From Candidatus Staskawiczbacteria bacterium (GTDB taxonomy: Bacteria > Patescibacteriota > Minisyncoccia > Minisyncoccales > Staskawiczbacteraceae), in NCBI GenBank assembly GCA_026395175.1, contig JAPLZF010000009.1:2290-66289 (forward strand): a stretch of DNA of 64,000 bases, in the 5' to 3' direction. Below the pieces are notes generated by a model that was not told where the DNA came from, ran no database searches, and saw nothing but the letters and a program-made list of their open reading frames with translations. Positions 36,800 to 53,781 of this stretch are shown here, piece by piece. The position numbers and the translations under genes are program-made. Position 1 is the first letter of the stretch, and each line of letters starts with the position of its first letter.

Positions 36800-37565
36800 C
36801 TCCGGCATATTTATTCTCAAATTCAAAAATATGGAATTTATCAATTTGTTTTTTCCGCAAGTAATCGTAAAAATGAGAATTGTCCTGGATATCATCAAAA
36901 ATTATAACAGCGCCGGCATTAAATAATTTTTCCAGCTGTTTTACCGCAAAAGCCCTGCCTCTGTAACTTTTGTCGGAATCATAATGGAATATGTCAATTT
37001 TGCCAATCTCTTTTTTTATTTTTGGAATATTAATTTCATCTCCTTTTATAAAAAGCTTCCAGTTTTTTTTGAATCTTTCTTCCACTAAAATGCCGACATA
37101 TTTTTGTGGCTCTGCCAATCTGAAATATAAAAGGTCGCTGCTGTATAAAATTCCCTGCCCGTTTTCATAAATTGCCTTCAAAAACATTTGACTGGAAAAA
37201 CCGGCTGCCACGCCGGTCTCGAATATGCGGTTTGGTTTTTTCAATTTCGTCAAAAAATAAAGCACAGGGTAAATGCCTCCTCCGCCAAGGTCATAACCGA
37301 TTTCCGGCAAAACATTATTTGCTTTTAACTTAAGCTCTGACGCGCATTTTAATGATTCTTCCCAGAGTTTATTATTTATATTTCTAAAAATTTCTGAATA
37401 ATCAGAGCAATTTTTTTTAATCCATTTTAAATTTTCTTCTTTAGACAAACTGCCTTTTTCATCAAAAAATCTTTCGACAGCTTTGCCTGCCAAAACTCTA
37501 AAATTTTCCGGAGACTTAAATCCGAATTTTATAATATTAAGCAGATTTTCAGACATTTTTTTCAT
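36783..37565 (-). CDS. class I SAM-dependent methyltransferase (O-methyltransferase family 3 / Methyltransf_24-like)
   Basis: Motifs present are IFETGVAAGFSSQ and FHYDSDKSYRGR..VIIFDDIQDN. The track start at 37649 would overlap fcl by 101 nt, so I chose the internal Met (MKKMSEN) at 37565. An alternative start is at 37556. Confidence 0.6.
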   Translation of the reverse strand: MKKMSENLLNIIKFGFKSPENFRVLAGKAVERFFDEKGSLSKEENLKWIKKNCSDYSEIFRNINNKLWEESLKCASELKLKANNVLPEIGYDLGGGGIYPVLYFLTKLKKPNRIFETGVAAGFSSQMFLKAIYENGQGILYSSDLLYFRLAEPQKYVGILVEERFKKNWKLFIKGDEINIPKIKKEIGKIDIFHYDSDKSYRGRAFAVKQLEKLFNAGAVIIFDDIQDNSHFYDYLRKKQIDKFHIFEFENKYAGVIGDL

Positions 37566-38487
37566 ACCATTCAATTGTATTTTTAAGACCGGCTTTGAAA
37601 TTAGTTTTTGCCAGGAAGCCGAACTCTTTTTTTGCAAGAGACGTATCAAGCGACCTTCTCGGCTGGCCGTCGGGCTTTGTTTTATCCCATTTGATTTTTC
37701 CTTTAAAATTCATCAACCTGCAAATTAAATCCGCCAAATCCTTTATTGAAATTTCCAAATCAGAACCCAAATTCACAGGCTCTGATTTTTCATATTTTTC
37801 CGTTGCCAGAATAATTCCTTCAGCCGCGTCTTCAACATACAAGAATCCCCTGGTGGCCTTTCCTGTTCCCCAGGCTTCAATATATTTTTTTCCGTCTCTT
37901 TTTGCCTCGTAAATTTTTCGTATCAAAGCAGCTATGACGTGCGAAGATTCAGGATTGAAATTGTCGCCGGGACCGTACATATTCAGGGGCAATAAAAATA
38001 CTGAATTAAATCCATATTGCGCCCGATAGGCCAAAGACTGCACCAAAAGCATTTTTTTAGCCAGCCCGTAAGGCGCGTTTGTTTCTTCGGGGTATCCATT
38101 CCATAAATTTTTTTCTTTAAAAGGAACGGGCGTAAATTTTGGATAAGCGCAAACTGTTCCAAGCGCCACAAATTTTTCAACGCCTTCTTGCCGGGCTACT
38201 TCCATCAGCTGGGCCCCCATTATAATATTGTCGTAAAAAAGTTCCCCGGGTTTTGCCTTGTTAAACCCAATTCCGCCCACCTTGGCGGCAAGATGTATTA
38301 CAATATTTTTACCTTTTACCGCCTTTACGCAGTCTTCCCATTTTCTCAAATCTAATTCTTCAATCGACGGCAAAAACAAATTTTTTTCCAAAACTTTTCT
38401 TTTTTCCAACAAATTGGCAACCAAGCGCTTTCCTAAAAATCCGCCCGCGCCTGTTATTAAAATTTTTTTATCTTTAAGATTTATCAT
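37549..38487 (-). CDS. fcl: GDP-L-fucose synthase (GDP-4-keto-6-deoxymannose 3,5-epimerase/4-reductase)
   Basis: Motifs present are KILITGAGGFLGKRL, PYGLAKKM and NMYGPGDNFNPESSHVIAALIRK. The protein is 312 aa. Confidence 0.8.
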   Translation of the reverse strand: MINLKDKKILITGAGGFLGKRLVANLLEKRKVLEKNLFLPSIEELDLRKWEDCVKAVKGKNIVIHLAAKVGGIGFNKAKPGELFYDNIIMGAQLMEVARQEGVEKFVALGTVCAYPKFTPVPFKEKNLWNGYPEETNAPYGLAKKMLLVQSLAYRAQYGFNSVFLLPLNMYGPGDNFNPESSHVIAALIRKIYEAKRDGKKYIEAWGTGKATRGFLYVEDAAEGIILATEKYEKSEPVNLGSDLEISIKDLADLICRLMNFKGKIKWDKTKPDGQPRRSLDTSLAKKEFGFLAKTNFKAGLKNTIEWYEKNV

Positions 38488-38488
38488 A

Positions 38489-39448
38489 TTAATTCTTGTA
38501 ATAAGATATGATATTTAAAAGCCCTTCTTCAAGAGAAACCGCAGGATGATATTTTAAAATTTTAACCATTTTTCCTATTTCAGGAAATCTATGCCTTATA
38601 TCAACTCTTTTTGTTTCCACCAGTTTTGGCTTTAATTTTTCTTTTTGGCCAGAATAATAAATTATTGAATTCGCCAGGTCATATATTGTAAGGGGTCTTC
38701 CTGTCCCGATATTAATAACTTCCCCGTTGGAACTGTCCAGTTCCATTGCTTTTACAGACGCTTCTATATTGTCTTTTATATAAACAAAATCCCTTGTCTG
38801 GCTTCCATCGCCGAAAACAGTGGGGCATTTCCCTTCTAAAACTTGCTTTACAAAAATGCCGACGACAAAACCATAATCGCTGCTTTCCTGGCGAGGTCCG
38901 TAGACATTAAAAAATCTCAAGGCGCATGTTTTCAATCCGTATTTCTGCCAATATGATTCCAAAAATTTTTCTCCCAAAAGCTTTACAACAGCATAAGGAA
39001 TTTTAGGGTTGACAGAGCCGTCTTCGCGCTCGGGCAATTCTTTCGGCTCTCCATACACTTCAGAGCTTGATGAAAATACAACTTTAGGCCTGCCATTTTT
39101 CAGCGACAATTCTAAAATATTTTTGATGCCCTCGACGTCATCCAGCACCAGCAGAGGATTTTCAATGGTTCTTTTCACGCCCACCATAGCCGCATAATGG
39201 AAAACTCCGTCAAATTTATATTTTTTGAAAACCGGCGCGATTTCTTTTATTTTGTTGGCATCGCCTTTTATAAATACAAAATCAGAATTATTTTTTAGAG
39301 AAGAAAGATTTTCAAGTTTTCCGGTGCTTAAATTGTCCAAGCAGACAACCTTACTGCCCTTTCCGATTAGTTTTTCGCACAAATGCGAACCAATAAACCC
39401 AGCTCCGCCGGTTATTAAAAATGTCTTTTTTTTATTTGATTTTTCCAT
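38489..39448 (-). CDS. NAD-dependent epimerase/dehydratase, UDP-glucuronate decarboxylase-like
   Basis: Motifs present are FLITGGAGFIGSHLCEKL, VVCLDNLSTGKLENL, SSSEVYGEP and the YxxxK element YAVVK. Confidence 0.55.
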   Translation of the reverse strand: MEKSNKKKTFLITGGAGFIGSHLCEKLIGKGSKVVCLDNLSTGKLENLSSLKNNSDFVFIKGDANKIKEIAPVFKKYKFDGVFHYAAMVGVKRTIENPLLVLDDVEGIKNILELSLKNGRPKVVFSSSSEVYGEPKELPEREDGSVNPKIPYAVVKLLGEKFLESYWQKYGLKTCALRFFNVYGPRQESSDYGFVVGIFVKQVLEGKCPTVFGDGSQTRDFVYIKDNIEASVKAMELDSSNGEVINIGTGRPLTIYDLANSIIYYSGQKEKLKPKLVETKRVDIRHRFPEIGKMVKILKYHPAVSLEEGLLNIISYYKN

Positions 39449-39450
39449 AT

Positions 39451-40308
39451 CTAAAATCTTAAAATCTTAATACTCTTTCTCCAAATCCTAAGAAGGAAAA
39501 ATTTATAAGGGCTCATTGTTCCCGGATACTGCCGGAAAAATTTCGGCAAAGGATTAGTTTTTTTAAAATTCATTTCGCAGCCGTGCCAAAATAATTTTTT
39601 ATAGCCGTCCACAACTATTTTCCCGTCGTATAATTGGAAAATCCTGGTCTGATATTTTGTATCTTTAAAAATTTCCTTTGGAGAATTATCTTTTATTTCA
39701 AAAAGATTAAAAAATTCTCTTTTCACAAAAAAGCCGTTCCAAAGTGTGGCAGCCACCAGTTCATATCCTTTTTTTCTAGCTAATTTAGATAGCGCAAATA
39801 AAGACGACCCTTGATTGACTTCCAAATTTCTTTCCTGAACAAAATAAATATCTGTTGGTATAGTTGAATTGAATTCTATAACCACGACTTTCGGAGAATA
39901 TGTTTTCAAGGAATCCCAAATGTGATAATCATTTCCGTCTATGTCTATACTGAGAAGGTCAAAATTTTTATCTGTCGGAGTATTTTTTAAAATATTATCT
40001 AATGTATCTTCGCCCTCAAAATTAACTTTTCTGTTCAGGCAGATATTTTGGGGCTTTACAGAATAAGTTTCGGTTAATTTTTCATATTCTTTTTCATCAG
40101 ATTCTATTAACGCGCCCGACCATCCTTTATTTTCAATTAAATTATAAGTATTGCTTAAAAATTTTCCGTCCAGCGCTCCAAACTCCACGCACTGCTTATT
40201 ATCGCTTTTTATTATTTCAAAAATCTTTTCCAAAATGCCGTCTTCCCCGTTTTGAGAATAGACATTTTTTTCAAACGAGCATAACCAATTATTTTTTTTA
40301 TTTTCCAT
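39451..40308 (-). CDS. FkbM-family methyltransferase
   Basis: CVEFGALDGKFLSNTYNLIENKGWSGALIESDEKEY is present. The roughly 285-aa length fits the family. Confidence 0.6.
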   Translation of the reverse strand: MENKKNNWLCSFEKNVYSQNGEDGILEKIFEIIKSDNKQCVEFGALDGKFLSNTYNLIENKGWSGALIESDEKEYEKLTETYSVKPQNICLNRKVNFEGEDTLDNILKNTPTDKNFDLLSIDIDGNDYHIWDSLKTYSPKVVVIEFNSTIPTDIYFVQERNLEVNQGSSLFALSKLARKKGYELVAATLWNGFFVKREFFNLFEIKDNSPKEIFKDTKYQTRIFQLYDGKIVVDGYKKLFWHGCEMNFKKTNPLPKFFRQYPGTMSPYKFFLLRIWRKSIKILRF

Positions 40309-40334
40309 AATCTATAATTTAATTAGTTAAAAGT

Positions 40335-41384
40335 TCAATCTACTTTCCACCATTTATCCGGAAACTTTTCTTTTATTATTTTGTCGCCTTCGCCCGGAGC
40401 AGCCAAATTCAAGCGCCTCATATCAGAATCAACCATTATTTTTACCAGCTCGTCAAATTTAATCTTCGCTTCCCAATTCAATTTGTTTTTTGCCTTCAAA
40501 GGGTCTCCGATAAGATTTTCAACTTCTGCCGGCCTGAAATATCTGTCATCAATTTCAACATATTGCTTAAAATCGCCTAATCCTGCATATTGGAATGCCA
40601 CTTCCAAAAATTCTTTCACCGAATGGCTTTCCCCTGTCGCTATGACAAAATCATCCGGCTGGTCCTGCTGCAATATCTGCCACATTGCTTCTATATATTC
40701 CTGGGAAAAACCCCAATCGCGCTTGGCATTAATGTTGCCAAGATAAATTTTCTTTTCTAACCCTGCCTTAATTTTTGCTACGGCCATAGTAATTTTTCTT
40801 GTCACAAACGTCGGCCCCCTTCTGCATCCTTCGTGATTGAATAAAATGCCGTTGCAGGCAAAAATGCCGTAAGCTTCCCTATACATTCTGGTTATATCGA
40901 AAGAAAAAACTTTTGCGCAGGCATAAGGGCTTCGAGGATGAAAAGGAGTGTTCTCATTTTGGGGCGGAGCGTTGTTGCCAAACATTTCAGAGGACGACGC
41001 CATATAAAATTTTATCGGAAGCTTGGAATTTTTAATTGCCTCCAATATTCTCAGCGTTCCCAGGCCGTCTATGTTTACGGTTGATTCTGGCATATCAAAG
41101 CTTACTTTGACGTGCGACATTGCTCCGAGGTGGTATATTTCATCCGGCTTTATCTGGTTGATCAATCGTTCCAAATTTCCGGTGTCTGAAAGGTCTCCAT
41201 AGTGCAAAAATAATTTGACATTATTCACGTGCGGATCCTGATAAAGATGGTCTATCCTTTCTGTCGTGAAAATGCTGTCCCATCTTATAATGCCATGCAC
41301 TTGATATCCTTTGTATAATAAAAATTCTGCAAGATATGAACCATCTTGCCCGGCAATGCCTGTTATTAAAGCTTTTTTTTCCAT
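40335..41384 (-). CDS. gmd: GDP-mannose 4,6-dehydratase
   Basis: The N-terminus [30 protein letters not shown] is present, together with SSSEMFG and PYACAKVF. Confidence 0.9.
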
Positions 41385-41389
41385 AAAAT

Positions 41390-41773
41390 TTAATTAATAA
41401 TAGGAACTCTTACTGTGTCGCTTTCATATTTTCTGCCCGCCCTTGATTCGGAAATCAAATCAAGCAAAATTGTTTTCTCAATTGCTTTGAATCTGTGAAT
41501 TGTCATCGGGGGTATTATTATAAGCTCTCCGGGCCTTAAAATTATTTTTTTGACATTTGAAGGATTGCTTGCTTTTGCGAAAAAAACTTCGAATTTTCCG
41601 GAGAGAACATAATTATACTGCGTAGAAAGCTTATGGTAATGGTTGGCCCTTACGCATCCTTTTTTCGTGACAATAAGCCCCACATGATTTATTTTTTCAT
41701 TCAATAAGTCCGATATCGACCCTCTTTTGTCTTCAAATGCGGGCTTTATTTTTTTGACAATTACTTTTTTCAT
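41390..41773 (-). CDS. cupin-fold sugar ketoisomerase/epimerase (FdtA/QdtA/WxcM-like)
   Basis: The 127-aa product carries [22 protein letters not shown] (an H-x-H element) and [11 protein letters not shown] 4-nt overlap links it to the C-methyltransferase gene. Confidence 0.5.
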
Positions 41774-43011
41774 TTTATTATCGGGCTCGGTATTGGAATA
41801 ATAAATTTTCCTCCGGCCTTTGAAAAATTTTCGTTATTTCTGATTATTTCTTCGGCAAAATTCCAGGCGAAGATAATGCCGTAATCCGGCTTGTCTTCCA
41901 TAATTTTTTCTTCTCCCACGATAGGAATATGCATTCCCGGAGTATATCCTCCTTTTTTTATAAGAGATTTTTCTGCAATATAATCAATCAAATCTGCGCC
42001 GATTTTGCAATAATTCAGCACCGTGTTTCCTTTGGCCGGAGCTGAAATGCCTATTATTTTCTTGCCGTCTTTTTTAATGTCCCTTAAAAGATTTATCAAC
42101 ATTTCCTTGTGCAAAGCAACTTTTTTTGCAAACTCGTCTAAAGTTTCTTTATTATATATTTTTTTTTCATTCTCTAACAATATGAATTTTTCAATATTGC
42201 CCGATATCGGAATTTTTCCGGTTCTGCAGACAAAAACCCTGATTGATTTTCCATGTATGTCATATTTTTCAACATCAAAAACATCAAAATTATGCTTTTT
42301 GAAAAAATTTATCAGAGGCTTTACGGAAATGTATTCTAAATGCTCGAGATAAATCGTATCATACTCCAAATTTTCTATCAGATCAACCAAATAAGGAACC
42401 TCAAAAACAAACACCCCGTCTTCTTCTAACAAAATATCCAGAGATTTCAAAAGTCCTTCTTTGTCATCGATATGGGCGAAAACATTTGTGCCTGTGATTA
42501 TTTTTGCCCTGCCTTTTTCAATTTTTATCCTTTCAGCAACCGCAGGATTGAAAAATTCGTGCCAGGTTTCAATGTTTCTTTCATTGGCAATTTTATATAT
42601 CTCCACCGCAGGGTCTATCCCCAAAACCTCCATGCCGTTCTTTTTGAAGCCTTCCAAAAGAACTCCCACATTGCTGCCTATGTCAACTGCCAAAGATTTG
42701 TTTTTTAAATCGAATCTTTTGCAAATGGAATCGGCCATCAGAAAAAAATGCTTTTTGCCTGTTTCGGTTATGGAAGATTCATATTTATATTTGCTTCCGT
42801 AGAGCAATTTTGAATTAACAACGTATCCCAGCTGAGTTAGTCCGCAATCCTCGCACTGCAAAACATTCAGCGGAAAAAAAATTTCAGGCTCTAAAAGATC
42901 CTCAAAAGAAATAATCGCGTCGGAAGGAGGCGTAAAACCGAGGTCTAAAAATTTATATAATTTTTCTCCCCCGCACATTCTGCATGTTTTTAAAACACGG
43001 CCGAATTCCAT
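41770..43011 (-). CDS. NDP-hexose C-methyltransferase (TylC3/EvaC-type architecture)
   Basis: An N-terminal zinc ribbon (CRMCGGEKLYKFLDLGFTPPSD..CEDCGLTQ) is followed by a SAM core (LAVDIGSNVGVLLEG). A C-terminal C-methyltransferase-type domain completes the architecture. Confidence 0.7.
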   Translation of the reverse strand: MEFGRVLKTCRMCGGEKLYKFLDLGFTPPSDAIISFEDLLEPEIFFPLNVLQCEDCGLTQLGYVVNSKLLYGSKYKYESSITETGKKHFFLMADSICKRFDLKNKSLAVDIGSNVGVLLEGFKKNGMEVLGIDPAVEIYKIANERNIETWHEFFNPAVAERIKIEKGRAKIITGTNVFAHIDDKEGLLKSLDILLEEDGVFVFEVPYLVDLIENLEYDTIYLEHLEYISVKPLINFFKKHNFDVFDVEKYDIHGKSIRVFVCRTGKIPISGNIEKFILLENEKKIYNKETLDEFAKKVALHKEMLINLLRDIKKDGKKIIGISAPAKGNTVLNYCKIGADLIDYIAEKSLIKKGGYTPGMHIPIVGEEKIMEDKPDYGIIFAWNFAEEIIRNNENFSKAGGKFIIPIPSPIIK

Positions 43012-43037
43012 AATATTTTAAGATGACAATTATATTT

Positions 43038-44147
43038 CTATTTTAATATGAATTTTATCGCATCGCACACTGCTTCAATCTGTTCTTTTTTCAAAGCCAG
43101 CCCGCTTGGCAGATATAACCCCTGCCTGGAAATATTTTCCGTTACAGCAAGCTTTTCTTTTTTTATTTTGATATTTATTTTTTTCCAGACAGGCTGAAGA
43201 TGCAAAGGATAAAAGAACGGCCTTGTTTCTATTCTTTTTTCCAGCAATTTTTCAGCAAATGATTCGGCGTTAAATCCGGTTTTTTTATCCAAAACGATTC
43301 CGTACATCCAATAAACATTCTTGGCGTATTCTTTTTCAGCCGGCAGGCGCAACCCGCTGATTCCTTCCAGATTTTCTGTGTATTTTTTGCCGTTTTCCCT
43401 TTTTATTTTTATCAGTTTTTCAATGTTTTTCAGCTGGGCTGTTCCTATTGCCGCCTGCATATTCGTCATTCTGTAATTCCTCGCCAATTCTTCATGCAAA
43501 AATCTTCTTTTTTCAATGAAGCCGATATTCCTTAAAAGCTCCGCCCGCTCGGCATATTTTTTGTCATTAGCCAGAACCATTCCTCCTTCTCCGGTACTTA
43601 TAATTTTATTGGCATAAAAGCTGAAGCAGGAAATATCGCCGAAACTTCCGCATTTTTTTCCGTAATATTCTGCACCAATCGCTTCTGCCACGTCCTCAAT
43701 TATTTTTAATTTGCGCTTTTTGGCTATTTTCAAAATTGGTTCCATATTACATGGATACCCATAAATATGGACAACCATTATGGCTTTGGTTTTTTTGGTG
43801 ATTTTTTCTTCTATTTTTTCAGGGTCAATGTTCCATGTATCTTCTTTGCAATCAACAAAAACCGGAACCAACCCATTGGCAACCACGGCCGAGGCGCAGC
43901 TTATTATTGTAAAAGACGGCAATATTATTTCGTCACCCGGCGCAAAATTAAGAGCGCCGACAGCCACCTCCAAAGCGGCTGTTCCGGAAGAAACAGCAAC
44001 CCCGTATTTTTTGCCGATATAAGAACTGAATTTATTTTCAAATTCTTTCACAAAAGGGCCTTCAGAAGAAATCCAGCCGGAATTAATGCATTCGGCTAAA
44101 TACTTTTTTTCATCGCTTATGAATAATGGCTCGTTGACAGGAATCAT
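43038..44147 (-). CDS. DegT/DnrJ/EryC1-family PLP-dependent sugar aminotransferase
   Basis: The protein is 369 aa. The catalytic Lys is retained in FSFYANKIISTGEGG. Confidence 0.85.
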   Translation of the reverse strand: MIPVNEPLFISDEKKYLAECINSGWISSEGPFVKEFENKFSSYIGKKYGVAVSSGTAALEVAVGALNFAPGDEIILPSFTIISCASAVVANGLVPVFVDCKEDTWNIDPEKIEEKITKKTKAIMVVHIYGYPCNMEPILKIAKKRKLKIIEDVAEAIGAEYYGKKCGSFGDISCFSFYANKIISTGEGGMVLANDKKYAERAELLRNIGFIEKRRFLHEELARNYRMTNMQAAIGTAQLKNIEKLIKIKRENGKKYTENLEGISGLRLPAEKEYAKNVYWMYGIVLDKKTGFNAESFAEKLLEKRIETRPFFYPLHLQPVWKKINIKIKKEKLAVTENISRQGLYLPSGLALKKEQIEAVCDAIKFILK

Positions 44148-45343
44148 AGGTTTAATGCTTCATTTATAGCATTTTCCCACTTGTTTGTAAACGATTCCCT
44201 GGTTATGCCTTCTGCCATTTTTTTGGCGTTTTTAACCAAGTTTTCCCTTAAATTGCCGTCTGTCCACAACTGGTAAATTTTTTCCGCCATATCTTCGGGT
44301 AAAAAAGGGTTGAATAAAAGACCGGCATTGCCAACCTCTTCTGGCATCGCAAAAAGATTCGAGCATAAAACTGGCGTTCCTAAAACAATGGCCTCTAATG
44401 GCGGAATGCTGGTTGGGCCTATCAGCGTCGGAAAAACCAATGCCCAAGATTTTTTATACAGCGCGACAATTTCCTCGTCTGGCGCATATCCTAAATGAAA
44501 AATCTGATTTTTTATTCCTGATTTTTCCGCCAACTCCATAACTTTTAAATAATTTTTTTTATTTGCTCCCGGGTCTCCCGCCAAAACTAAATTTACCTCT
44601 GCTTTATATTTGTCTTTTATTATTTTCAAGGATTTTATCAGCCTCAAATGATTTTTATGGAACCAGAATTGGGCCGGATAAAAAATAAATTTTTCAGGCA
44701 GGTTATATTTTGAAAGCAGGCTGTCAACAACTTTTTCATCCATATTTTTTAGTTCATAGACATATCCTGGCGGAATAAGAGGCGCAATCATAATTTTTTC
44801 CTTCGGAATTTTATAAAATTTATTCAAGTCATCAGCCCCCTGTTTTGATTCCACTGCGCTCAAAACCGAATTTTCAGCGGAACATTTGTAAACAATGTCC
44901 CTTTTTATTCTTGCCTTGAAATTATATTCTGGAAAATTATGATAATACTTATGCATAATATCGGGAATGGAAACAATATAGGGTATTTTATTTTCAAAGC
45001 CGAACAAAAGAGGAAAAGGGATAATCAAAAGGTCTATGCCGGAATTTTTTATAGTATCTTTATTTTTTTTATTCGGCGCAAAAAAGGGTCTGCCTAACAA
45101 AACATTGATTATTGTTTTTATTTTTCCCATAAAACTGTTCTGGCTTCCGTCAAGCGGAATAAAATTGACATTATCAAGATTTTTTGCCTTTAAAAATTCT
45201 TTCGGAGATTCTTTGTCAAAATACAAAATAGTGTAATTAAAATCACCGCAATAATTGATCAACCCCTCGATTATGCTCAACCCATACTGAAAAACGCCCA
45301 TCTTCCTTGAAACTGAAAATAAAATTCCTATATTCTTTTTCAT
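44144..45343 (-). CDS. GT4-family (group 1) glycosyltransferase
   Basis: The C-terminal half reads LVFPTLIGPTSIPPLEAIVLGTPVLCSN. The start is set at the ATG at 45343 (MKKNIGILF), 5 nt after the upstream stop. The track start at 45382 would overlap the upstream gene by 34 nt. Confidence 0.75.
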   Translation of the reverse strand: MKKNIGILFSVSRKMGVFQYGLSIIEGLINYCGDFNYTILYFDKESPKEFLKAKNLDNVNFIPLDGSQNSFMGKIKTIINVLLGRPFFAPNKKNKDTIKNSGIDLLIIPFPLLFGFENKIPYIVSIPDIMHKYYHNFPEYNFKARIKRDIVYKCSAENSVLSAVESKQGADDLNKFYKIPKEKIMIAPLIPPGYVYELKNMDEKVVDSLLSKYNLPEKFIFYPAQFWFHKNHLRLIKSLKIIKDKYKAEVNLVLAGDPGANKKNYLKVMELAEKSGIKNQIFHLGYAPDEEIVALYKKSWALVFPTLIGPTSIPPLEAIVLGTPVLCSNLFAMPEEVGNAGLLFNPFLPEDMAEKIYQLWTDGNLRENLVKNAKKMAEGITRESFTNKWENAINEALNL

Positions 45344-45348
45344 GATTG

Positions 45349-46086
45349 CTATATTTTTTTGGCAACAATAAATATGTTCCAATTATCTTCTGAAATTTTT
45401 GAATTCAAATCCATAAAATTGCAGATTTTGATTATTTTAAACCCGTTTTTTGCAAAAAAATATTCCAGTTCCGGCAGATACCAAAATCGTATTTTGTGGT
45501 TTTCGTTTATTTTTATAATTCCATCTTTAAAAATTTTAAAATTTATATCGACAATGCTTTTTTCTATGTCTAATTTCTGCCCGGTCTTTCTTATAAATCC
45601 GCCGATTGTTTTTTCTCTGTCTTCCGGACGATTTTTCAAGACAGCCGGCCCGTACCAGCAATCAAAAGCAAACAAGGCATTCTTTTTCAATAAACGTCCT
45701 GTATTTTTAATCGTATTTTCCATAGCTTCGTTTTCCGCCATATAGCCTAAAGTATTGAACATAGCCATCGCAAAATCAAATTTTCCACCAGCCTTGAAAT
45801 TGGAAATATCCGCTATTTTAAATTTGATATCCGCATTTTCTTTTTTGGCTTTCTGCTTTGCAATTTCAATCATTTTCGGCGATTTATCCACTCCCAAAAT
45901 TTTGAATCCGGATTTTGCCAAAATAATATCGTGGCTTGCTGTTCCGCAACCCAAACTCAAAATATTTCCAACTTTTATTGAAGAATATTTTTTTATAACA
46001 TTTTTTAAGAAATCTGCCTCTTTTTTATAATCTTTATTCTCATAAACTTTATCATAAAAATCAGCATATTTTTGAAAATTAGCCAT
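45349..46086 (-). CDS. class I SAM-dependent methyltransferase
   Basis: ILSLGCGTASHD is present. The acidic loop is GVDKSPKMIEIAK. Confidence 0.75.
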   Translation of the reverse strand: MANFQKYADFYDKVYENKDYKKEADFLKNVIKKYSSIKVGNILSLGCGTASHDIILAKSGFKILGVDKSPKMIEIAKQKAKKENADIKFKIADISNFKAGGKFDFAMAMFNTLGYMAENEAMENTIKNTGRLLKKNALFAFDCWYGPAVLKNRPEDREKTIGGFIRKTGQKLDIEKSIVDINFKIFKDGIIKINENHKIRFWYLPELEYFFAKNGFKIIKICNFMDLNSKISEDNWNIFIVAKKI

Positions 46087-46088
46087 AT

Positions 46089-46838
46089 TCAGAGCTTATA
46101 TCCGGCTTTTCTTGCGGTTTTTCCGCAAATCAGCCCGAATATCTTTAATTCTAATGTTGAAAAATAATTTTTATAATCTCCCACTATCCCTTTTCTGAAT
46201 TCAGAATTTTTTTTGTCTTCCTGCCCTTTTTTTCTTCCGGTAATTTTTTCAAAAGAAAATTTTTCAATTGCTTCGTCTATAATATTATATTCTGCGCTAA
46301 CGTTAATATAGTCCAAAATTTTCAAAAGCGTTTTTTTCGTTTCAGCGGACAAATCCTCATATTTTACATGGAAAGGCAAATTTTTTCCTTGCGATGAATA
46401 ATAGCTGGTCCAGCCTTTGGCTGTCAAAACATAATCTATTATCCTGATTTTGGTGGCTATTGTCCAAAATATTTTGCCTTTTATATTTTTCCATTTTGCG
46501 GATTTAGCTCCGTTTTTATGCCACCAAAGAGCTGAAACAGCCACGTCGCGCGGGTCTCTGGTCAAAAAAATAACTTTGCCGGAAAAATTTGCTTCTCTTA
46601 TGGGCAGGTTATGGGTTTTAACCACCAAATCATACCGGGTTTTCTTTCTGCCGGGAATATTGCCGTTTGTATTTTCTATTATGTATTCTGAAAAAGAGCA
46701 GTCTTTTCCGCGAATTAAGCTGTACGGCTCGATGTATCTGGCATTCAAAATATAACAAAGCATATAGCTCAGCCACCCCTGGCCAGACCTTCCGTAATCT
46801 GAAATTAAAATTATCCTGTCGCTAGAGCTTGATTTCAT
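46089..46838 (-). CDS. PAPS-dependent sulfotransferase
   Basis: A 5'-phosphosulfate-binding-like loop (ILISDYGRSGQGWL) is present. A 3'-phosphate-binding-like motif (IFLTRDPRDVAVSALW) is also present. Confidence 0.7.
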   Translation of the reverse strand: MKSSSSDRIILISDYGRSGQGWLSYMLCYILNARYIEPYSLIRGKDCSFSEYIIENTNGNIPGRKKTRYDLVVKTHNLPIREANFSGKVIFLTRDPRDVAVSALWWHKNGAKSAKWKNIKGKIFWTIATKIRIIDYVLTAKGWTSYYSSQGKNLPFHVKYEDLSAETKKTLLKILDYINVSAEYNIIDEAIEKFSFEKITGRKKGQEDKKNSEFRKGIVGDYKNYFSTLELKIFGLICGKTARKAGYKL

Positions 46839-47349
46839 ATTTTTTTTCTAAAATTTTTATTATTTCACCCAAAGAATCTTCAATGGAAACTTTATCTGTC
46901 ATAATTTCCAAATCAGAATTTTTTGGAATTTCATATGGGGAATTCTCTGAAAATCCGATCAGATTTTTAATTTCTCCGGTTTTTGCTTTTTTATATAATC
47001 CTTTAATGTCGTTTTTTATCAAAATATCCAAAGGGCAGTTCAAAAATATCTCTAAATATTTTTTATTAAAAATTTTGCGCGCTTTGTCCCGCGTTTCCTG
47101 ATAAGGAGAAATTGCAGACACTATTATAAAATCATAATCTTTTTTTGCCTTTTGGCAGTAAGAAATTATATTGTAATTATTATCTAAAATATCTTTTTTG
47201 GCAAATTCATTTTTTTTATTATTTTTTTCCCGGAAGATATCCCCATCAAGCTGAAAAACCGAAAAGCCGGCTTTTTCCAAAACTTCCTTAAGACAAGCTG
47301 ACAAAGTTGATTTTCCCGACCCGGATAGCCCGGTAAGCCAAATTACCAT
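46822..47349 (-). CDS. cysC: adenylylsulfate (APS) kinase
   Basis: The N-terminus MVIWLTGLSGSGKSTLSACL contains the P-loop, followed by LDGDIFR. The protein is 175 aa. Confidence 0.85.
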   Translation of the reverse strand: MVIWLTGLSGSGKSTLSACLKEVLEKAGFSVFQLDGDIFREKNNKKNEFAKKDILDNNYNIISYCQKAKKDYDFIIVSAISPYQETRDKARKIFNKKYLEIFLNCPLDILIKNDIKGLYKKAKTGEIKNLIGFSENSPYEIPKNSDLEIMTDKVSIEDSLGEIIKILEKKYEIKL

Positions 47350-47351
47350 AA

Positions 47352-49556
47352 TTATTGCCCGGTTTCAAATAATTTATTTTTTGAATTCTTATACATGTCT
47401 TCCAGCATTTCTGCAATGTCCGGTCTCATAAGATAATCCGGTATTTTTTCATTGTTCAAAAGGCAAGCTCTGGCTTTTGTCCCGCTGATGCTGATTTTTG
47501 ATTTCTCTTTGTGCCTGCATTTGTCAACAACTTTGCCGCATTCTCTGCAAAAATAAGCTACATCAAAAAACAAAGGAATAATGCCAATGTCGCCTATCTT
47601 GCTGAATATTTCTTGGGAAGCGTTGGGAGAATAATAATTGCCAACGCCTGTATGGTCTCTGCCGACTATAAAATGGCTGCAGCCGAAATTTTTTCTGCAA
47701 AGAGCGGTGAATACCGCTTCCCTAGGACCGCTGTATCTTGAATAAGTGGCAAACGAGCCTATTATTGCAGGATACGGCTTATAATATCCTTTTTTTATCA
47801 TAATTTCATAAGCGCCAATAATAGCTTCTGCGGTAAAATCGTCTGCCTTTTTTGGCCCCACAACCGGACTGATAAATAAGCTGTCCGCGCCGACTTTTGC
47901 CAATGCTTCTTTTTGTATAAATTCGTGCCCTTTGTGGACTACATTTCTTGTGTGAAAACCCACTATTTTCTGCCAGCCGAAATTTCCAAAAATTTCTCTC
48001 GTCTGCTTTGGAGTCAAATTATAAAGCTGGGCATAGGAAGCAGGCCTCTGGATGAGAAAAACTTCTCCCCCAATTATATAATTTCCTTTTTTCTTAAAAT
48101 TACTGGCGCCGGGATGATTGTCATCTTTTGAGCCAAACCATTTTTCGGCTATTTTTTTGATATCTATTTTTTTTATTTCCGACACATCCATTGCTCCGCA
48201 TATCTCGCCAGAATTATTCTGCAAAATAATTCTTTCGTCTTCTTTAAAATTTATGTCGCTTTTTTCCATCTGCAATAAAATCGGCATAGTCCAAACAGCT
48301 CCATTTTTCAGTTTATAATTTTCTAAAACCGAAGTCAGTTCCTTGTAATTCATAAAACCTCTCAAGGGCGAATAAACGCCTTCGCCAATCTGCACCAAAT
48401 CCAATATAGCCTGGTCTGAAACTATTTTTTTCTTTAATTTTCCTATATTCTTGATTGATTGGAGGCTTATTATATTCTGGACCAGAATTCCGCCATGAGG
48501 CTCTATCAAAGAATAATCGAAAATTGAATTAAGGTAATTATTTTTTTCGCTTTGTTTGTAATTTTTGACTTCCTCTATTATATTTTTAACCATTCTGACG
48601 CATTCTGCAGGATGCTTGCCAATAGCTGTTTCTGCGGCCAAAACAAGCCCTTGGGCTCCGTCCAATAATGTGTTGGTAATGTCGTTTACTTCCGCTCTTG
48701 TGGGCTGGAAATTTTCCATCATTGTTTCCAGCAAATTAGTGGCGACATAAACAGGCGTTTTAAAGCTTCCGGCTGTTTTTAAAATATGCTTCTGGACTAA
48801 CCCGATTTTCTGCAATTGCACGTCGCGCGAAAGGTCTCCCCTGTCTATCAATATGGCGTCGCTTACTTTGCATATTTCTTCCAAATTATTTATTCCTTTC
48901 CTGCTCTCAATTTTGCTTATTGCAAAAATAGGATATTTGAATATTTTCCTCAAATTTTCCACGTCTTCTTTTTTTGAGCAGAAAGACAGGGCAATGCAAT
49001 CAATTTTTTTTGCTTCTGCCATTTTAAAAACAGCCATGTCTTTTTCTGTAAATGCCGGCAAATTAATGTCCCTGTCCAAATTAACGCCCTTATTTGAACC
49101 GACAACTCCTCCTTCCAAAACCCGCGCTTTGACTTTGCCTTTAGATATTTCAATCACCTGAACAATAACATTATGAAAATCCATATAAAGAATATCTCCT
49201 TCTTTCAACAAATTCTTAGGGCTTATGGGGTATAAAGGAATGTTTTTTTCGTCTCCCAAAACATTGCAATCGCTCAGCGAAACAACGCTGTTGTTTTCCA
49301 AAAAGGCCTGACCGTTTTTCATTTTGCCGGTTCTTATTTGGGCGCCTTCAGAATCAACGCATATTGTTTTTTTAACGCTAGAAGATATTTTTGAAAAAAT
49401 TCCGTTGAAATCTTTTTCTTTTGTGTGAGACAAATTAATTCTGAAAATATCAACTCCGGCAGATTCCATTCTCTGCAATATTTCTTTATCTATGGAGCTT
49501 GGCCCCACCGTAGCCAGAATTTTTATGTTTTTTAATTCTTTTTTCATAATTTGCAT
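47352..49556 (-). CDS. fusion protein: pyruvate-kinase catalytic barrel (aa ~9-330) + PUA-like domain + ATP sulfurylase (aa ~351-734)
   Basis: The PK motifs are IKILATVGPSS, FRINLSH, CVDSEGAQIRTG, ISKIES, LIDRGDLSRDV, VATNLLETM and PTRAEVNDITNTLLDGAQGLVLAAETAIGKHP. The Sat motifs are IEPHGGILV, YSPLRGFM, GFHTRNVVHKGHEF and HFIVGRDHTGVG. All of these lie in a single uninterrupted 734-aa frame. Confidence 0.8.
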   Translation of the reverse strand: MQIMKKELKNIKILATVGPSSIDKEILQRMESAGVDIFRINLSHTKEKDFNGIFSKISSSVKKTICVDSEGAQIRTGKMKNGQAFLENNSVVSLSDCNVLGDEKNIPLYPISPKNLLKEGDILYMDFHNVIVQVIEISKGKVKARVLEGGVVGSNKGVNLDRDINLPAFTEKDMAVFKMAEAKKIDCIALSFCSKKEDVENLRKIFKYPIFAISKIESRKGINNLEEICKVSDAILIDRGDLSRDVQLQKIGLVQKHILKTAGSFKTPVYVATNLLETMMENFQPTRAEVNDITNTLLDGAQGLVLAAETAIGKHPAECVRMVKNIIEEVKNYKQSEKNNYLNSIFDYSLIEPHGGILVQNIISLQSIKNIGKLKKKIVSDQAILDLVQIGEGVYSPLRGFMNYKELTSVLENYKLKNGAVWTMPILLQMEKSDINFKEDERIILQNNSGEICGAMDVSEIKKIDIKKIAEKWFGSKDDNHPGASNFKKKGNYIIGGEVFLIQRPASYAQLYNLTPKQTREIFGNFGWQKIVGFHTRNVVHKGHEFIQKEALAKVGADSLFISPVVGPKKADDFTAEAIIGAYEIMIKKGYYKPYPAIIGSFATYSRYSGPREAVFTALCRKNFGCSHFIVGRDHTGVGNYYSPNASQEIFSKIGDIGIIPLFFDVAYFCRECGKVVDKCRHKEKSKISISGTKARACLLNNEKIPDYLMRPDIAEMLEDMYKNSKNKLFETGQ

Positions 49557-51031
49557 TAAGCGACCAATACCAAAAAGCTTTCTTTTATGGCAGAGTATAT
49601 TTTATAATTTAAAAACTTGTCTGAAATGAATACAAAAAAGAAATAAGAAGCTATTCCCGAAATCACCAGAATGAAAAATCCTGCAAAATTGTTCCCAACA
49701 AAATTTTTCATAAAAGAAACAAACAGCACCATAAACGCGCAATTGGCAAGTGGTATGAATGTTTCTTTCAAAAAATCAAACCATCTGCATTTTATAATGC
49801 TTATTGTAGTAATTGCTATGCATGAAACATAAACAACAGCGCTGGTTAAAACAGCCAAAGCCGCTCCTGAAATTCCCCACATTTTTATTAAAGGATAGAG
49901 CAGAATCAAAAAAACTGCAAGCTGGACAGCGCTATATTTTGTCTGTATTTTCGGCTGTCCTAGAGCCTTAAGCACAGGAGAACTGGCGGCGTCGAATATG
50001 GAAACAAGCCCGGCAAGGCATAATAATCTCATTGGAGTCACTGCTGGCAGCCACTGCCTGCCCAAAAAAAGAAACGTAAACTCTGAGGCAATCACAATTA
50101 TTCCGCTGGAAATCGGCGCGAAAATAAATAATAAAAATTTGATTGTTTTCAAGTAAGCTCCGGCCATTTTTTTAATGTCGTGCTGGATTTTAGAATAAGC
50201 CGGAAAAATGGCTCCTGAAACAATGCTTGCCGAAGTTATGCTTGAAATTTTGTATCCCACCTGGTAGAATCCCAAAGACAAGACTCCAAGAAATCTGCCC
50301 ACGAAAATGCTGTCTGCCTGCAACAAGAAAAAATTCAAGACATTAGACCAAAAAATCCATTTGCCGAAATTAAACATCTCTTTGGCTTTTTTGTAATCAA
50401 ACTTAAAATGCGGACGATAGCTGTGAAGCGCGTAAGAAGCAACAAGGCGCACCAAGTTGCCGACAATCAGTCCAATGACTAAAGCCCAGACATTTCTGAA
50501 TACAAGAGCCGCCGACACGACTGCTATGAATTCAATTGCCGTGCCGAAAAGCTGATAAATAAAATATCTGTCGAATTCAAGGTCTTTGCCGAAATAAATA
50601 ATGCCTATGTTTACAAATCCCTGGATTAATATTGAAAGCGCCACGAATTGCGCTATCAAAGCCGCTTGCGGAGCGTTAAAAACAGATGCCACAAACGGCG
50701 CTATCAATATCAAAATTGTGGCTAAAATAATGCCCCTTGCTATCTGGATAATCCAAGCTGTGTCCAAATAAGACTCTGCAGAATCTTTTTTCTGTATGAT
50801 TGCCTGGTCGATGCCGGTCTGCGAAAAAGATTCCAAGACAGATACGGCTATAAAAGCTACTCCAAATAATCCGAAATCTTCAGGAGAAATAATGTGGGCA
50901 AGAATAATCGCCTGGATAAAACTGAAAAATTGGTCAACTATGCGGAAAGCAAACAGCCAAAATGTTCCCTGAATTGTTTTCTTTGAAATGCTTCCTTCCC
51001 GCGAAAAGAATTTTTTAATTAAATTTTTCAT
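49556..51031 (-). CDS. MOP-superfamily polysaccharide flippase (Wzx-like)
   Basis: The 491-aa product has about 12-14 TM segments. Its N-terminus (KKTIQGTFWLFAFRIVDQFFSFIQAIILAHIISPEDFGLF) is typical of the polysaccharide biosynthesis protein family. Confidence 0.75.
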   Translation of the reverse strand: MKNLIKKFFSREGSISKKTIQGTFWLFAFRIVDQFFSFIQAIILAHIISPEDFGLFGVAFIAVSVLESFSQTGIDQAIIQKKDSAESYLDTAWIIQIARGIILATILILIAPFVASVFNAPQAALIAQFVALSILIQGFVNIGIIYFGKDLEFDRYFIYQLFGTAIEFIAVVSAALVFRNVWALVIGLIVGNLVRLVASYALHSYRPHFKFDYKKAKEMFNFGKWIFWSNVLNFFLLQADSIFVGRFLGVLSLGFYQVGYKISSITSASIVSGAIFPAYSKIQHDIKKMAGAYLKTIKFLLFIFAPISSGIIVIASEFTFLFLGRQWLPAVTPMRLLCLAGLVSIFDAASSPVLKALGQPKIQTKYSAVQLAVFLILLYPLIKMWGISGAALAVLTSAVVYVSCIAITTISIIKCRWFDFLKETFIPLANCAFMVLFVSFMKNFVGNNFAGFFILVISGIASYFFFVFISDKFLNYKIYSAIKESFLVLVA

Positions 51032-51599
51032 ATTTATAAGAAGCTTTTATTTCTTTTGTCAGCCAGTTGTTTCCGATAGTTTCCACAAAAGGGATATAAA
51101 TTTTTTCCGCTTCTTTCAAATGCCTAAGCCATCTTTCCTTGCGGTCTTTTCTATATTTAAGAGATTTAACATTATCAAGAACATCGCAGGCTTTTATAAT
51201 TATTATTTCTTTCGGTCCGGCAATGGTTTCTTCAAATTTCTTTTCTTTTGTTTCTCTGGCTTTGTCTCTTGAAAGCGCCAAAACCCATCGGGCTATTTTG
51301 CCGCCAAACCTATTTTTAATTTCTAAAAACGAAATATCCGTGTCTTCTATGATATCGTGCAACAGGCTAGCAACAATAACATCTGCTTTTCTGATTTTCA
51401 AATCAAATATCAATGTATTTGCAACTCTGACCAAATGAATCAAATATGGGTCTCCTTCGTCTCTTTTTTGATTTTTATGATGCTCTCTTGCCAATTCAAA
51501 CGCTTCAATAATTTTTTTTCTTCCGGTTATTTTGGCAATGCCTTTTTTAAGCCTTTTTTCCTGAAAATTAATATCCCTGAAATAATCTTTTTTATTCAT
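51015..51599 (-). CDS. HD-domain protein of the RelA/SpoT hydrolase type (small alarmone hydrolase-like)
   Basis: HHKNQKRDEGDPYLIHLVRVANTL..ASLLHDIIEDTD matches the HD (p)ppGpp-hydrolase pattern H..Q.R..G.PY..H...VA...LHD..EDT. Confidence 0.65.
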   Translation of the reverse strand: MNKKDYFRDINFQEKRLKKGIAKITGRKKIIEAFELAREHHKNQKRDEGDPYLIHLVRVANTLIFDLKIRKADVIVASLLHDIIEDTDISFLEIKNRFGGKIARWVLALSRDKARETKEKKFEETIAGPKEIIIIKACDVLDNVKSLKYRKDRKERWLRHLKEAEKIYIPFVETIGNNWLTKEIKASYKYEKFN

Positions 51600-51601
51600 T
51601 T

Positions 51602-53080
51602 TTATTTCAGTTTTTTAAAAATCAATAATTTTTCAGGAAAAATAATCCTGTAAAAAACAAGCAACAGTAATCCGTAAACCAACACTCCTATGCCAAAAAC
51701 AAAAATAACATTAAGCCCGCTGATAAATTTTAAACTAATGACAGAATACATTACAAGGCTGGAAAATAAGGAGATCAATGCTGTTTTAAGCAGATTTTTA
51801 TTGAATGACTTGATCAGCGCCAATTTTCTGGAAAGGAATATGGTTGAAGCCAAAACAACAAAGCATGAAATTATGGTGGAAATTATAACCCCATAAAAAC
51901 CGAAGACGGGAATGAATAAAAAATTTAATATTATGTTTAAAACAGCTCCGGCAATTATCAGACCAAAATTTCTTTTCTGATGGTCTGAAACTATCAGAAT
52001 AACGCTGTAAGGATAATTTATGAAGCTGATGCCCGCCACGAATATCAAAAGTTGCAGGGCTAAAACCGACGGGCCGAAATTAGGACCATAAAAAAATCTT
52101 ATGATACTGCCGGATAATGCTATGCCTCCCGCTATTATAGGCAATGCCAAAAGAATCATCAACTCCATCAAATATTCCCAAACTTTTTGGAGATTCTGTT
52201 TTGAAGAAACAAAAAAATTGCTCAATGCCGGATAAAAGCTCCTGATTATCAAATCAGCCGGCACTATGGCGACCAGCGCAATTTTGGAAGCGGCGCTGTA
52301 CCAGCCATTTTCTATAATCAATCCGAAAAAGCCGAGCATCACCGAGCTTATCGATATATAAATCCAGCTGACCGTAAAACCAAGGCTCAAAGGCCAGGAA
52401 ATTTTTAAAATATCCAACGATTTTCTTTCCCATTTTAAAGACAGGCGGTGAAAAAGGACATTGAAAAGCAGAAGAACAAAACACATCACGGCTAAGTTTG
52501 AAAACATATATCCGTAACTTAAGTTTACAGCCGAAGGAATATTGAAAATAATGAATAAAACAACTATTGCGTTGACTACAGCATGGAATATTTTTATCGC
52601 CGCTTCATATTCCATTTTTTGGCGCGCCCGCAAAAAAATAAAAGTCATTGAAAACAGATTGGCGCTTAAAACGTAAACAATTAAAATCCACATAATCCTT
52701 CTGATAAGGAGGTCTTTTGTTATAAAAGAAGAGATTATGAATGTCGCAGTCAAAACCAGCGCGCACAAAATTATTTCCAGCGTGAAAATAGAATCGAATT
52801 TTTTTTCGTTTTCCCTGCTTCTTGAAAATTCTCTGGTGAAGACATCAATAATGCCGAGGTCTGAAAAAATAGCCATTATGGAAACAAAAGAAAAAGCAAA
52901 AATAAATTTGCCGTATTCTGTAGCTCCCAGCATTCTGATAATGTAAACAGCCAAAATAAATCCTAAAACTCTTACCGATACCTCGCCCAAAACCAGCCAA
53001 AAAGTATTTTTGACAATCGTCTGCCTGACCCCAATATTATTCAGAAATAAATTCTTCAGGTTTTGGAATATTTTTAACAC
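51602..53080 (-). CDS. second MOP-superfamily flippase (Wzx/oligosaccharide flippase-like)
   Basis: The protein is 492 aa and polytopic. Its N-terminus is VRQTIVKNTFWLVLGEVSVRVLGFILAVYIIRMLGATEYGKF. Confidence 0.7.
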   Translation of the reverse strand: MLKIFQNLKNLFLNNIGVRQTIVKNTFWLVLGEVSVRVLGFILAVYIIRMLGATEYGKFIFAFSFVSIMAIFSDLGIIDVFTREFSRSRENEKKFDSIFTLEIILCALVLTATFIISSFITKDLLIRRIMWILIVYVLSANLFSMTFIFLRARQKMEYEAAIKIFHAVVNAIVVLFIIFNIPSAVNLSYGYMFSNLAVMCFVLLLFNVLFHRLSLKWERKSLDILKISWPLSLGFTVSWIYISISSVMLGFFGLIIENGWYSAASKIALVAIVPADLIIRSFYPALSNFFVSSKQNLQKVWEYLMELMILLALPIIAGGIALSGSIIRFFYGPNFGPSVLALQLLIFVAGISFINYPYSVILIVSDHQKRNFGLIIAGAVLNIILNFLFIPVFGFYGVIISTIISCFVVLASTIFLSRKLALIKSFNKNLLKTALISLFSSLVMYSVISLKFISGLNVIFVFGIGVLVYGLLLLVFYRIIFPEKLLIFKKLK

Positions 53081-53781
53081 GATTCATTTCTTTTTAAAAT
53101 TATTTTTGCGATGCCGTCTTTTAAAATTTGGCAATTGGGAATTACGCAATGCCCGCCAATTTTTCCCGGAACATATTTTAGATAAGGCCTTAAAACTTCC
53201 TCTCTTCCCAACTTTTTATATCCCTCATTATAAGTTTTATTTGCGTCTGCATAAACAGCTTCAAAATCAACTTTATTTTTATCGCACCATTTTTTCATTT
53301 CTTTGTTTAAAACAATCAGCCAGCCGTATTGGGTTGTGTCCCAAAGCTTTATGGCTTCTGTTGTTTTTGACGGATAAAAAATTTTTGTTTTGATGCCTAA
53401 AGATTTCAAATGGCTTTCTGCCATTTTCCCTGCTTTTTCAGAATCAGCGCCAATGTATTTCACAAAGGTTTTTATGCCTTCAAAAAGTTTCGGATGCACT
53501 CCCCTGACCGGGCTGTGGACAATCATTCCTCCAATTTTTTTTGTCGTCCCGGGCGCGACAGTTGAATGTATTATCGTCAATTTAGGATTCGCTTTTTTTA
53601 TTTCTTTTTTGACAATTTTTACAAAATCTCTGCTCCAAGGAATGCAAATGTGCAGAATATCAACTCCTGCCAACCCGTCATCGCGCTTTAAATCTTTTAT
53701 TTTAGGATTATTGTAAAATTTAGAAATCGCTTTGCCGATTTCGCCGTATCCCAAGATGCCTATTTTTTGCAAAGATTTCAT
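53074..53781 (-). CDS. short NAD(P)-binding protein resembling the N-terminal two-thirds of nucleotide-sugar dehydrogenases
   Basis: The Rossmann motif is KIGILGYGEIGKAI. GKIGGHCVIPN resembles the catalytic-Cys motif GGxC(F/L/I)PKD of UDP-glucose/ManNAc dehydrogenases. At 235 aa it has no C-terminal nucleotide-sugar-binding domain. Confidence 0.4.
   Translation of the reverse strand: MKSLQKIGILGYGEIGKAISKFYNNPKIKDLKRDDGLAGVDILHICIPWSRDFVKIVKKEIKKANPKLTIIHSTVAPGTTKKIGGMIVHSPVRGVHPKLFEGIKTFVKYIGADSEKAGKMAESHLKSLGIKTKIFYPSKTTEAIKLWDTTQYGWLIVLNKEMKKWCDKNKVDFEAVYADANKTYNEGYKKLGREEVLRPYLKYVPGKIGGHCVIPNCQILKDGIAKIILKRNESC

Follow-up and report, generated by a model that had tools for sequence, protein, structure and literature searches.

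The window analysed here is a stretch of 64,000 nucleotides (nt) from a Candidatus Staskawiczbacteria bacterium (contig JAPLZF010000009.1 of assembly GCA_026395175.1, forward-strand positions 2,290 to 66,289), and the subject is a gene of this window in which a pyruvate kinase (PK) barrel, a PUA-like domain and an ATP sulfurylase (ATPS) are joined in one chain. As seen in Table 1, the fusion gene is accompanied on the same strand by genes for an adenosine 5'-phosphosulfate (APS) kinase and for a sulfotransferase of the type that uses 3'-phosphoadenosine 5'-phosphosulfate (PAPS), and all three lie within a co-directional glycan-biosynthesis operon. These genes had been pointed out in a first-pass annotation made from the sequence alone. 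The single frame of 734 amino acids (aa) that it described was recovered as an uninterrupted open reading frame (ORF), and its estimate of the junction, at about 48507..48566, agrees with the interval between the Pfam domain ends. In the public annotation the protein is 731 aa long and starts at Met4 of the 734-aa frame (entry P0001).

Table 1. Features of the window and of three related loci (window positions unless a locus is named)
Feature	Position	Strand	Size, residues and profile matches
PK-PUA-ATPS fusion gene	47352..49556	-	uninterrupted ORF, 734 aa; barrel-only PK + PUA-like + ATPS
PK A+B domains (barrel + lid)	48597..49532	-	residues 9-320; PF00224
Junction/linker	48507..48596	-	residues ~321-350, between Pfam domain ends
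PUA-like N-terminal domain of ATPS	48045..48506	-	residues 351-504; PF14306 (PUA_2), 125 bits
ATPS catalytic domain	47400..48023	-	residues 512-719; PF01747, 237 bits
APS kinase (CysC type)	46822..47349	-	175 aa; PF01583, 137 bits; TIGR00455, 158.8 bits against a cut-off of 138.7
PAPS-type sulfotransferase	46089..46838	-	249 aa; PF00685 at residues 10-242, 76.4 bits against a cut-off of 22
Co-directional glycan-biosynthesis operon	36783..53781	-	Pfam scans and ORF map
Two Wzx-like flippases in one operon	49556-51031 and 51602-53080	-	Pfam
HD_4 protein (RelA/SpoT-hydrolase-like HD)	51015-51599	-	194 aa; between the flippase genes, overlapping the downstream one
Wzy_C-domain protein, unusually long	54265-56694	+	809 aa; divergent, upstream of the operon
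Stand-alone PK (324-338 aa) + APS kinase pairs	L081:3958-5461, L082:5996-7539, L083:6001-7554		active-site signature of the fusion

The Pfam scan assigned 223.3 bits (cut-off 30) to the PK barrel, and the match covers positions 2-328 of the 328-position profile PF00224; since the whole profile is spanned, the B or 'lid' domain is present. No match to the PK C-terminal domain (PK_C, PF02887) was obtained in the 734-aa protein, and PUA_2 begins 30 residues past the end of the barrel. The same scan gave no GTPase or pyrophosphatase domain in the fusion protein. The junction consists of the last PK helix and a linker of about 20 residues, which leads into the 'LIEPHGG' start of the ATPS. The domain composition proposed in the first-pass annotation, a PK barrel with PUA_2 and ATPS in place of PK_C, was thus reproduced by profile search. 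Among the NCBIfam models, the sulfate adenylyltransferase subfamily model NF003166 is passed (391 bits, cut-off 387) and TIGR00339 is missed slightly (318.9 bits, cut-off 322.95). The fusion scores below the cut-off of the PK equivalog model TIGR01064 (274.2 against 306.4 bits), and likewise below those of all other NCBIfam PK models, the match being confined to their first ~340 positions. None of the NCBIfam models matched represents a family specific to a PK-ATPS fusion.

Over its full length the ATPS half can be aligned with the dimeric enzymes of M. thermolithotrophicus (8a8d, E 3e-87) and T. thermophilus (1v47, E 4e-67); the alignment to 8a8d begins at residue 5 of that protein and includes the PUA-like domain. 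The motifs R537, N538, H541/H544 (HxxH) and GRDHTGVG are kept, and where the Thermus enzyme has its zinc site there is a Cys/His cluster (C670/C673/C680/H682), a putative Zn site. The sulfate-binding QTRN motif reads HTRN in the window protein (residues 535-538, window 47950-47961). This His (H535) is found in 118 of 118 family members, and Gln occupies the position in the three nearest solved enzymes. The domains and fold of an ATPS are present, and its active-site motifs are conserved save for the invariant His in place of Gln.

A structure of the fusion was predicted, as the first-pass annotation had proposed, with AlphaFold (AF2) from the family alignment. Both halves of the model are confident (pLDDT 91.5, pTM 0.72), and the lowest pLDDT values lie in the junction (blocks 62-77). 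In Foldseek comparisons the C-terminal half superimposes on 8a8d with a TM score of 0.92 and a root-mean-square deviation (rmsd) of 2.0 A, and the N-terminal half on the A+B domains of PykF and PKM2 with an rmsd of 2.3-3 A. No chain spanning both the PK and ATPS halves was found in sequence and fold searches of the PDB.

Conservation of the PK half was assessed by aligning 118 fusion-family members, which are 46-75% identical to the window protein, with E. coli PykF; positions are given in rabbit PK numbering. R72, N74, S76, D112, R119, K206, K269, E271, D295, T327 and E363 are all present in the window protein and are invariant or at least 97% conserved among the relatives. In canonical PK these residues bind the phosphate of phosphoenolpyruvate (PEP), Mg2+, K+ and the nucleotide phosphates, and include the catalytic Lys and Thr. 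In the numbering of the window protein they appear as R39/N41/S43/D68 (the K+ and phosphate site), R75, K156, K215/E217 (SKIE), D241 (RGDL), T273 (ATN) and E309 (AAETA).

Beside this core, the family carries fixed substitutions: E for K114, A or S for P116, Q for E117, D for A292, S for G297 and N for Q328, and the canonical S361-G362 is changed to A-A (A307-A308 in the window protein). The motifs on which the first-pass annotation based its claim that all catalytic landmarks of PK are present do align with the catalytic residues; the claim itself was overstated, with S361-G362 changed and K114, E117, A292, G297 and Q328 replaced. At the cation site the family pattern is T/S113, E114, Q117 and T120. 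Two classes of PK have been described, K+-dependent enzymes with T113/K114/E117 and K+-independent enzymes with L113/Q114/K117 (PMC8835810, PMC4284704), and the family pattern matches neither signature. Of the features by which the half was compared with known PKs, the barrel domain and the catalytic residues were found, whereas PK_C, a curated equivalog score above cut-off and a known cation-site signature were not. Judging from these alignments, the PK half is a distinct subfamily with its own fixed signature near the active site.

The distribution of the architecture was examined in a search of 5.8 billion proteins, for which the 120 best-scoring clusters were listed. An identical protein was returned from a metagenome-assembled genome of Candidatus Staskawiczbacteria. 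PK, PUA_2 and ATPS are combined in all 120 listed clusters (46-75% identity), whose sources include Parcubacteria lineages, Ignavibacteria, Bacteroidetes, Bacteriovoracia and an Asgard archaeon bin; the database names of these relatives are generic, either 'pyruvate kinase' or 'sulfate adenylyltransferase'. An additional scan of one genome per GTDB species was limited to alignments at the junction (residues 230-425 of the window protein). Relatives of the junction were found in at least 495 species genomes of at least 12 phyla, and the 80 best matches all span the whole junction. Carriers among the matches listed belong to Omnitrophota, Verrucomicrobiota, Nitrospinota (Nitrospina), Planctomycetota (Scalindua, Anammoxibacter), Chloroflexota, Actinomycetota, Marinimicrobia, Elusimicrobia and Bacteroidota, together with many CPR (candidate phyla radiation) bacteria and many Alphaproteobacteria, including Pelagibacterales. 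One cultured carrier is Nitratireductor sp. ZSWI3 (L076).

It can be seen that the fusion architecture is widespread and uncharacterised, not rare. Because the same junction recurs across hundreds of independent assemblies, an assembly chimera or a missed frameshift, which the first-pass annotation had named as a point to be checked, is excluded; with the uninterrupted ORF, the at least 495 independent genomes, the 120 of 120 listed clusters and the confident AF2 model, the probability left for such an artefact is negligible.

The genetic surroundings of the fusion were sampled at 76 loci from different species, taking two genes on each side and labelling them by pooled Pfam scans. APS kinases number 35 among these neighbours, of which 33 are directly adjacent to the fusion. 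There are also about 34 sulfotransferases (Sulfotransfer_1/3), 6 CysQ-like Inositol_P proteins, Wzx/Wzy and sugar-modifying genes and many polysaccharide-synthesis genes. Neither APS/PAPS reductases nor sulfite reductases are among the frequent neighbour families within two genes of the fusion at the 76 loci. Therefore, with APS kinases and sulfotransferases as neighbours and no such reductases, the fusion would serve PAPS-dependent sulfation and not reductive assimilation.

In some relatives the APS kinase is part of the fusion chain, at either end, giving PK-PUA-ATPS-APSK and APSK-PK-PUA-ATPS proteins, where APSK is the APS kinase (P0032, P0034, P0102, P0210, P0223 and P0241). The fusion of the window lacks this feature of bifunctional PAPS synthases, its APS kinase being a separate gene. 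That gene begins 2 nt past the fusion stop codon and is itself overlapped by the sulfotransferase gene by 17 nt, so that the close downstream arrangement described in the first-pass annotation is borne out, with profile matches above the cut-offs for both proteins. The translation of the APS kinase contains 'GLSGSGKST' (P-loop) and 'LDGD' (DGD motif), and that of the sulfotransferase contains the PAPS-binding-like motifs 'GRSGQGW' and 'RDPRD'. Two further fusions were noted. In P0232 (1151 aa), a type I phosphodiesterase/nucleotide pyrophosphatase domain precedes PK-PUA-ATPS, and this extra domain might remove pyrophosphate (PPi) or 3'-phosphoadenosine 5'-phosphate (PAP). P0220 (1051 aa) is a PK of canonical signature fused to adenylate kinase, a different nucleotide-recycling fusion that stands outside the PK-ATPS family.

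An exhaustive search restricted to the PK half showed that the signature subfamily includes, besides the fusions, complete stand-alone proteins of ~325-360 aa. The closest canonical PKs, which are 474-497 aa long, show the Q114/K117 pattern. In a rough neighbour-joining tree without bootstrap the signature group lies apart from canonical PKs, and the stand-alone forms appear at several places. Seven stand-alone signature PKs were sampled for their neighbours. In three of the seven (L081, L082 and L083), an APS kinase gene begins within 3-29 nt after the PK gene, in a glycan cluster, and no ATPS was found within 6 kb of these pairs. The gene after the L081 pair was considered as the missing ATPS and was rejected, its translation having no ATPS motifs and no Pfam match. 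These pairs read as a split form in which the PK is coupled with APS kinase only. Stand-alone PKs beside an APS kinase and without an ATPS thus point to the APS kinase, the ADP-producing step, as the conserved partner of the PK subfamily, more than the ATPS itself.

The other stand-alone loci are more varied. At L086 an APS kinase lies 7 kb upstream, and there is a weak sulfotransferase-like neighbour. Sulfatase-family genes of the alkaline-phosphatase superfamily overlap the starts of two stand-alone PKs by 4 nt on short contigs (L085:109-978 and L088:273-1871), and the seventh neighbourhood is uninformative. For an eighth stand-alone PK (P0166), the called downstream neighbour is not an APS kinase; it is an ATP-binding cassette transporter ATPase that matches Wzt_C weakly. 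Directly upstream of two of the PK and APS kinase pairs are large proteins without a confident Pfam match (L082:3863-5947, 694 aa; L083:4028-6004, 658 aa), which may represent a novel sulfotransferase or an enzyme that modifies glycans.

Sulfate activation is thermodynamically unfavourable, and three ways of driving it are found in textbooks: by APS kinase, by the CysN GTPase and by pyrophosphatase. In the mechanism proposed here, a dedicated PK without allosteric control, made up of the A and B domains only and fused to a dimeric archaeal/Thermus-type ATPS, would work together with the APS kinase of the adjacent gene. ATPS would convert ATP and sulfate to APS and PPi, APS kinase would convert APS to PAPS with release of ADP, and the PK domain would return this ADP to ATP by spending PEP. 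Overall, sulfate, ATP and PEP would yield PAPS, pyruvate and PPi. Removal of ADP would also relieve the inhibition of APS kinase by a dead-end complex of enzyme, ADP and APS, and the PAPS formed would feed the adjacent sulfotransferase, which would decorate a surface glycan that the other genes of the operon make and export. Inhibition of APS kinases through such a dead-end complex has been reported, and ADP binds ATPS much as APS does (PMC3734648). Moreover, human PAPSS1 in vitro yields almost no PAPS unless ADP is removed by PK and PEP (PMC9885120).

The domain architecture, the conservation of catalytic residues, the recurrence and the linkage of the PK subfamily to APS kinases and sulfotransferases are direct observations, from which we infer that the PK domain works as a PEP:ADP phosphotransferase, its role being local ATP regeneration and ADP removal. 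The ADP-recycling idea is strengthened because APS kinase is adjacent to the fusion in 33 of 76 loci, is fused to it at either end in some relatives, and lies beside stand-alone PKs that have no ATPS. It is thus probable that an unregulated, dedicated PK regenerates ATP from the ADP of APS kinase, at the expense of PEP, for PAPS synthesis. The interpretation given in the first-pass annotation is in this way supported as the leading hypothesis for a mechanism that we infer. A stronger proposal, considered unlikely, is that the signature subfamily constitutes a new class of enzyme. In physical contact with APS kinase and ATPS, it would form a PAPS synthase driven by PEP, in which nucleotides are channeled or the phosphoryl acceptor is altered.

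Several points weigh against dedicated ATP regeneration. In bulk cytoplasm, a fused PK would give no thermodynamic advantage unless the exchange of ADP and ATP is local, and APS kinase is not adjacent to the fusion in 41 of the 76 loci. Without the PK C domain, the interface through which normal PKs form tetramers is lost. The fixed substitutions beside the active site (E114/Q117, D292, S297, N328 and A361-A362) are unlike those of every characterised PK class, and with A362 in place of Ser next to the enolpyruvate site, the activity, cation dependence or substrate of the domain could differ.

The substitutions, which the first-pass annotation had missed, may reflect a modified specificity, with an altered acceptor or donor. 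The PK-like domain would then be active, with PEP phosphorylating another acceptor (e.g. PAP, AMP or GDP) or with strict discrimination against APS as an ADP look-alike, and in either form the module would have a chemistry unseen in known PAPS synthesis. Eight positions of the active-site region fixed to residues absent from canonical PKs, and a cation-site pattern outside both published signatures, are in agreement with such a change; the invariant His for Gln in the sulfate-binding motif of the ATPS half hints at co-adaptation. The residues for the PEP phosphate, Mg2+, K+ and nucleotide phosphates are nevertheless all retained, and since about half of the sampled loci have APS kinase next to the fusion or joined to it, PAPS is evidently made in the normal way. 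PKs are also naturally loose in their choice of nucleotide, so that the genetic linkage needs no new specificity, and a changed specificity is considered unlikely.

A mainly regulatory or structural PK domain is quite improbable. Such a domain would act with little turnover, as a sensor of PEP or ADP or as an oligomerisation scaffold, and would replace the C-terminal regulatory domains of fungal ATPS. ATPS enzymes can carry non-catalytic kinase-like regulatory domains, as in the Penicillium enzyme, and the structures 1i2d and 1m8p, which are among the PDB matches of the ATPS half, recall this precedent; the absence of the C domain needed for the usual tetramer and the loss of S361 would also suit this role. 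Degenerate regulatory domains normally lose their catalytic residues, whereas the core catalytic residues here are invariant or nearly so across sequences only 46-75% identical to the window protein, and the stand-alone subfamily members beside APS kinase are unexplained by a tethered sensor. It is very unlikely, moreover, that the fusion belongs to assimilatory sulfate reduction or general glycolysis and that its link with sulfation is incidental. Such roles would suit the generic database names and the ATPS half, whose greatest similarity is to the assimilatory enzyme of Methanothermococcus thermolithotrophicus (8a8d); however, the neighbourhoods are dominated by APS kinase, sulfotransferase and polysaccharide genes, the reductases of sulfate assimilation are not among the frequent neighbour families, and the gene of the window is embedded in a glycan operon.

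Compared to known systems, the fusion with its proposed ATP regeneration combines familiar parts in a different way. In metazoan PAPSS1/2 (APSK-ATPS) and in the Sat/APS kinase of Aquifex aeolicus (2gks), as in the fusion, ATPS is joined to a partner that pulls APS formation, and the product is PAPS. The partner in the fusion is instead a PK barrel, the APS kinase of the window is a separate gene, and the energy input would include PEP. To our knowledge, no described PAPS synthase has a pyruvate kinase barrel. Other couplings are the CysD/CysN GTPase and the APSK-ATPS-pyrophosphatase fusions of stramenopiles. In these, too, a second exergonic reaction is attached to ATPS; it is the hydrolysis of GTP or PPi, whereas in the fusion it would be PEP-driven rephosphorylation of ADP, and the fold of CysD is unrelated. 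The A+B fold and the core catalytic and metal residues are common to the fusion and canonical PK (PykF/PykA and PKM, with PF00224 and PF02887), but the fusion lacks the C-terminal allosteric and tetramerisation domain, has its own signature and is tied genetically to APS kinases and sulfotransferases rather than to glycolysis. With the dimeric archaeal/Thermus-type ATPS (8a8d, 1v47) it shares alignment, fold, HxxH, GRDH and the Cys/His cluster, and it differs in the His for Gln of QTRN and in the 350-residue N-terminal PK module. The same set of ATPS, APSK and PK, with PEP, has been used for the same purpose of ADP removal and ATP regeneration in PAPS-regeneration cascades in vitro (PMC9885120). 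Those are man-made mixtures of unrelated enzymes, and the fusion would be a natural, genetically fused version.

In full-text literature, with subscription-only literature outside the search, no description of a PK-ATPS fusion was found; the only paper with all the search terms (bioRxiv 10.64898/2026.04.11.717937) names both enzymes separately. The suggestion in the first-pass annotation that this architecture had not been described holds in so far as no paper, NCBIfam family or structure with both halves was found, while the architecture is common in databases and is certainly listed, implicitly, in domain-architecture databases.

If the proposed role is correct, PEP-driven ATP regeneration would be a fourth way to power sulfate activation; on the stronger proposal of a new enzyme class, this way would be previously unrecognised and used widely by marine and groundwater bacteria for sulfated glycans. 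The fusion would surprise specialists in sulfur metabolism. Its spread may bear on the amount of microbial sulfated polysaccharide in oceans and aquifers. The family also defines an unstudied PK subfamily without a regulatory domain and with an unusual cation-site signature, and leads to the prediction that ultra-small CPR bacteria have sulfated glycans on their surface. For biotechnology, it would offer a ready-made single-chain ATP-regenerating PAPS module. The cultured Nitratireductor sp. ZSWI3 makes the idea directly testable.

As predicted from its gene content, the locus in the window is an operon for a surface glycan that carries its own sulfation module. Besides the two Wzx-like flippases and the HD_4 protein, the operon includes methyltransferases, a glycosyltransferase of the GT1 type, a DegT aminotransferase, a sugar C-methyltransferase, a GDP-mannose 4,6-dehydratase and epimerases. 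No Pfam match was obtained for the 235-aa ORF that heads the operon (53074-53781, minus strand). Promoter and terminator, Rfam and tRNA scans of the window gave nothing informative, and terminator-like sites are at chance level over the 19-kb operon region. The HD_4 protein encoded between the flippase genes is, as one idea, a candidate nucleotide phosphohydrolase acting on PAP.

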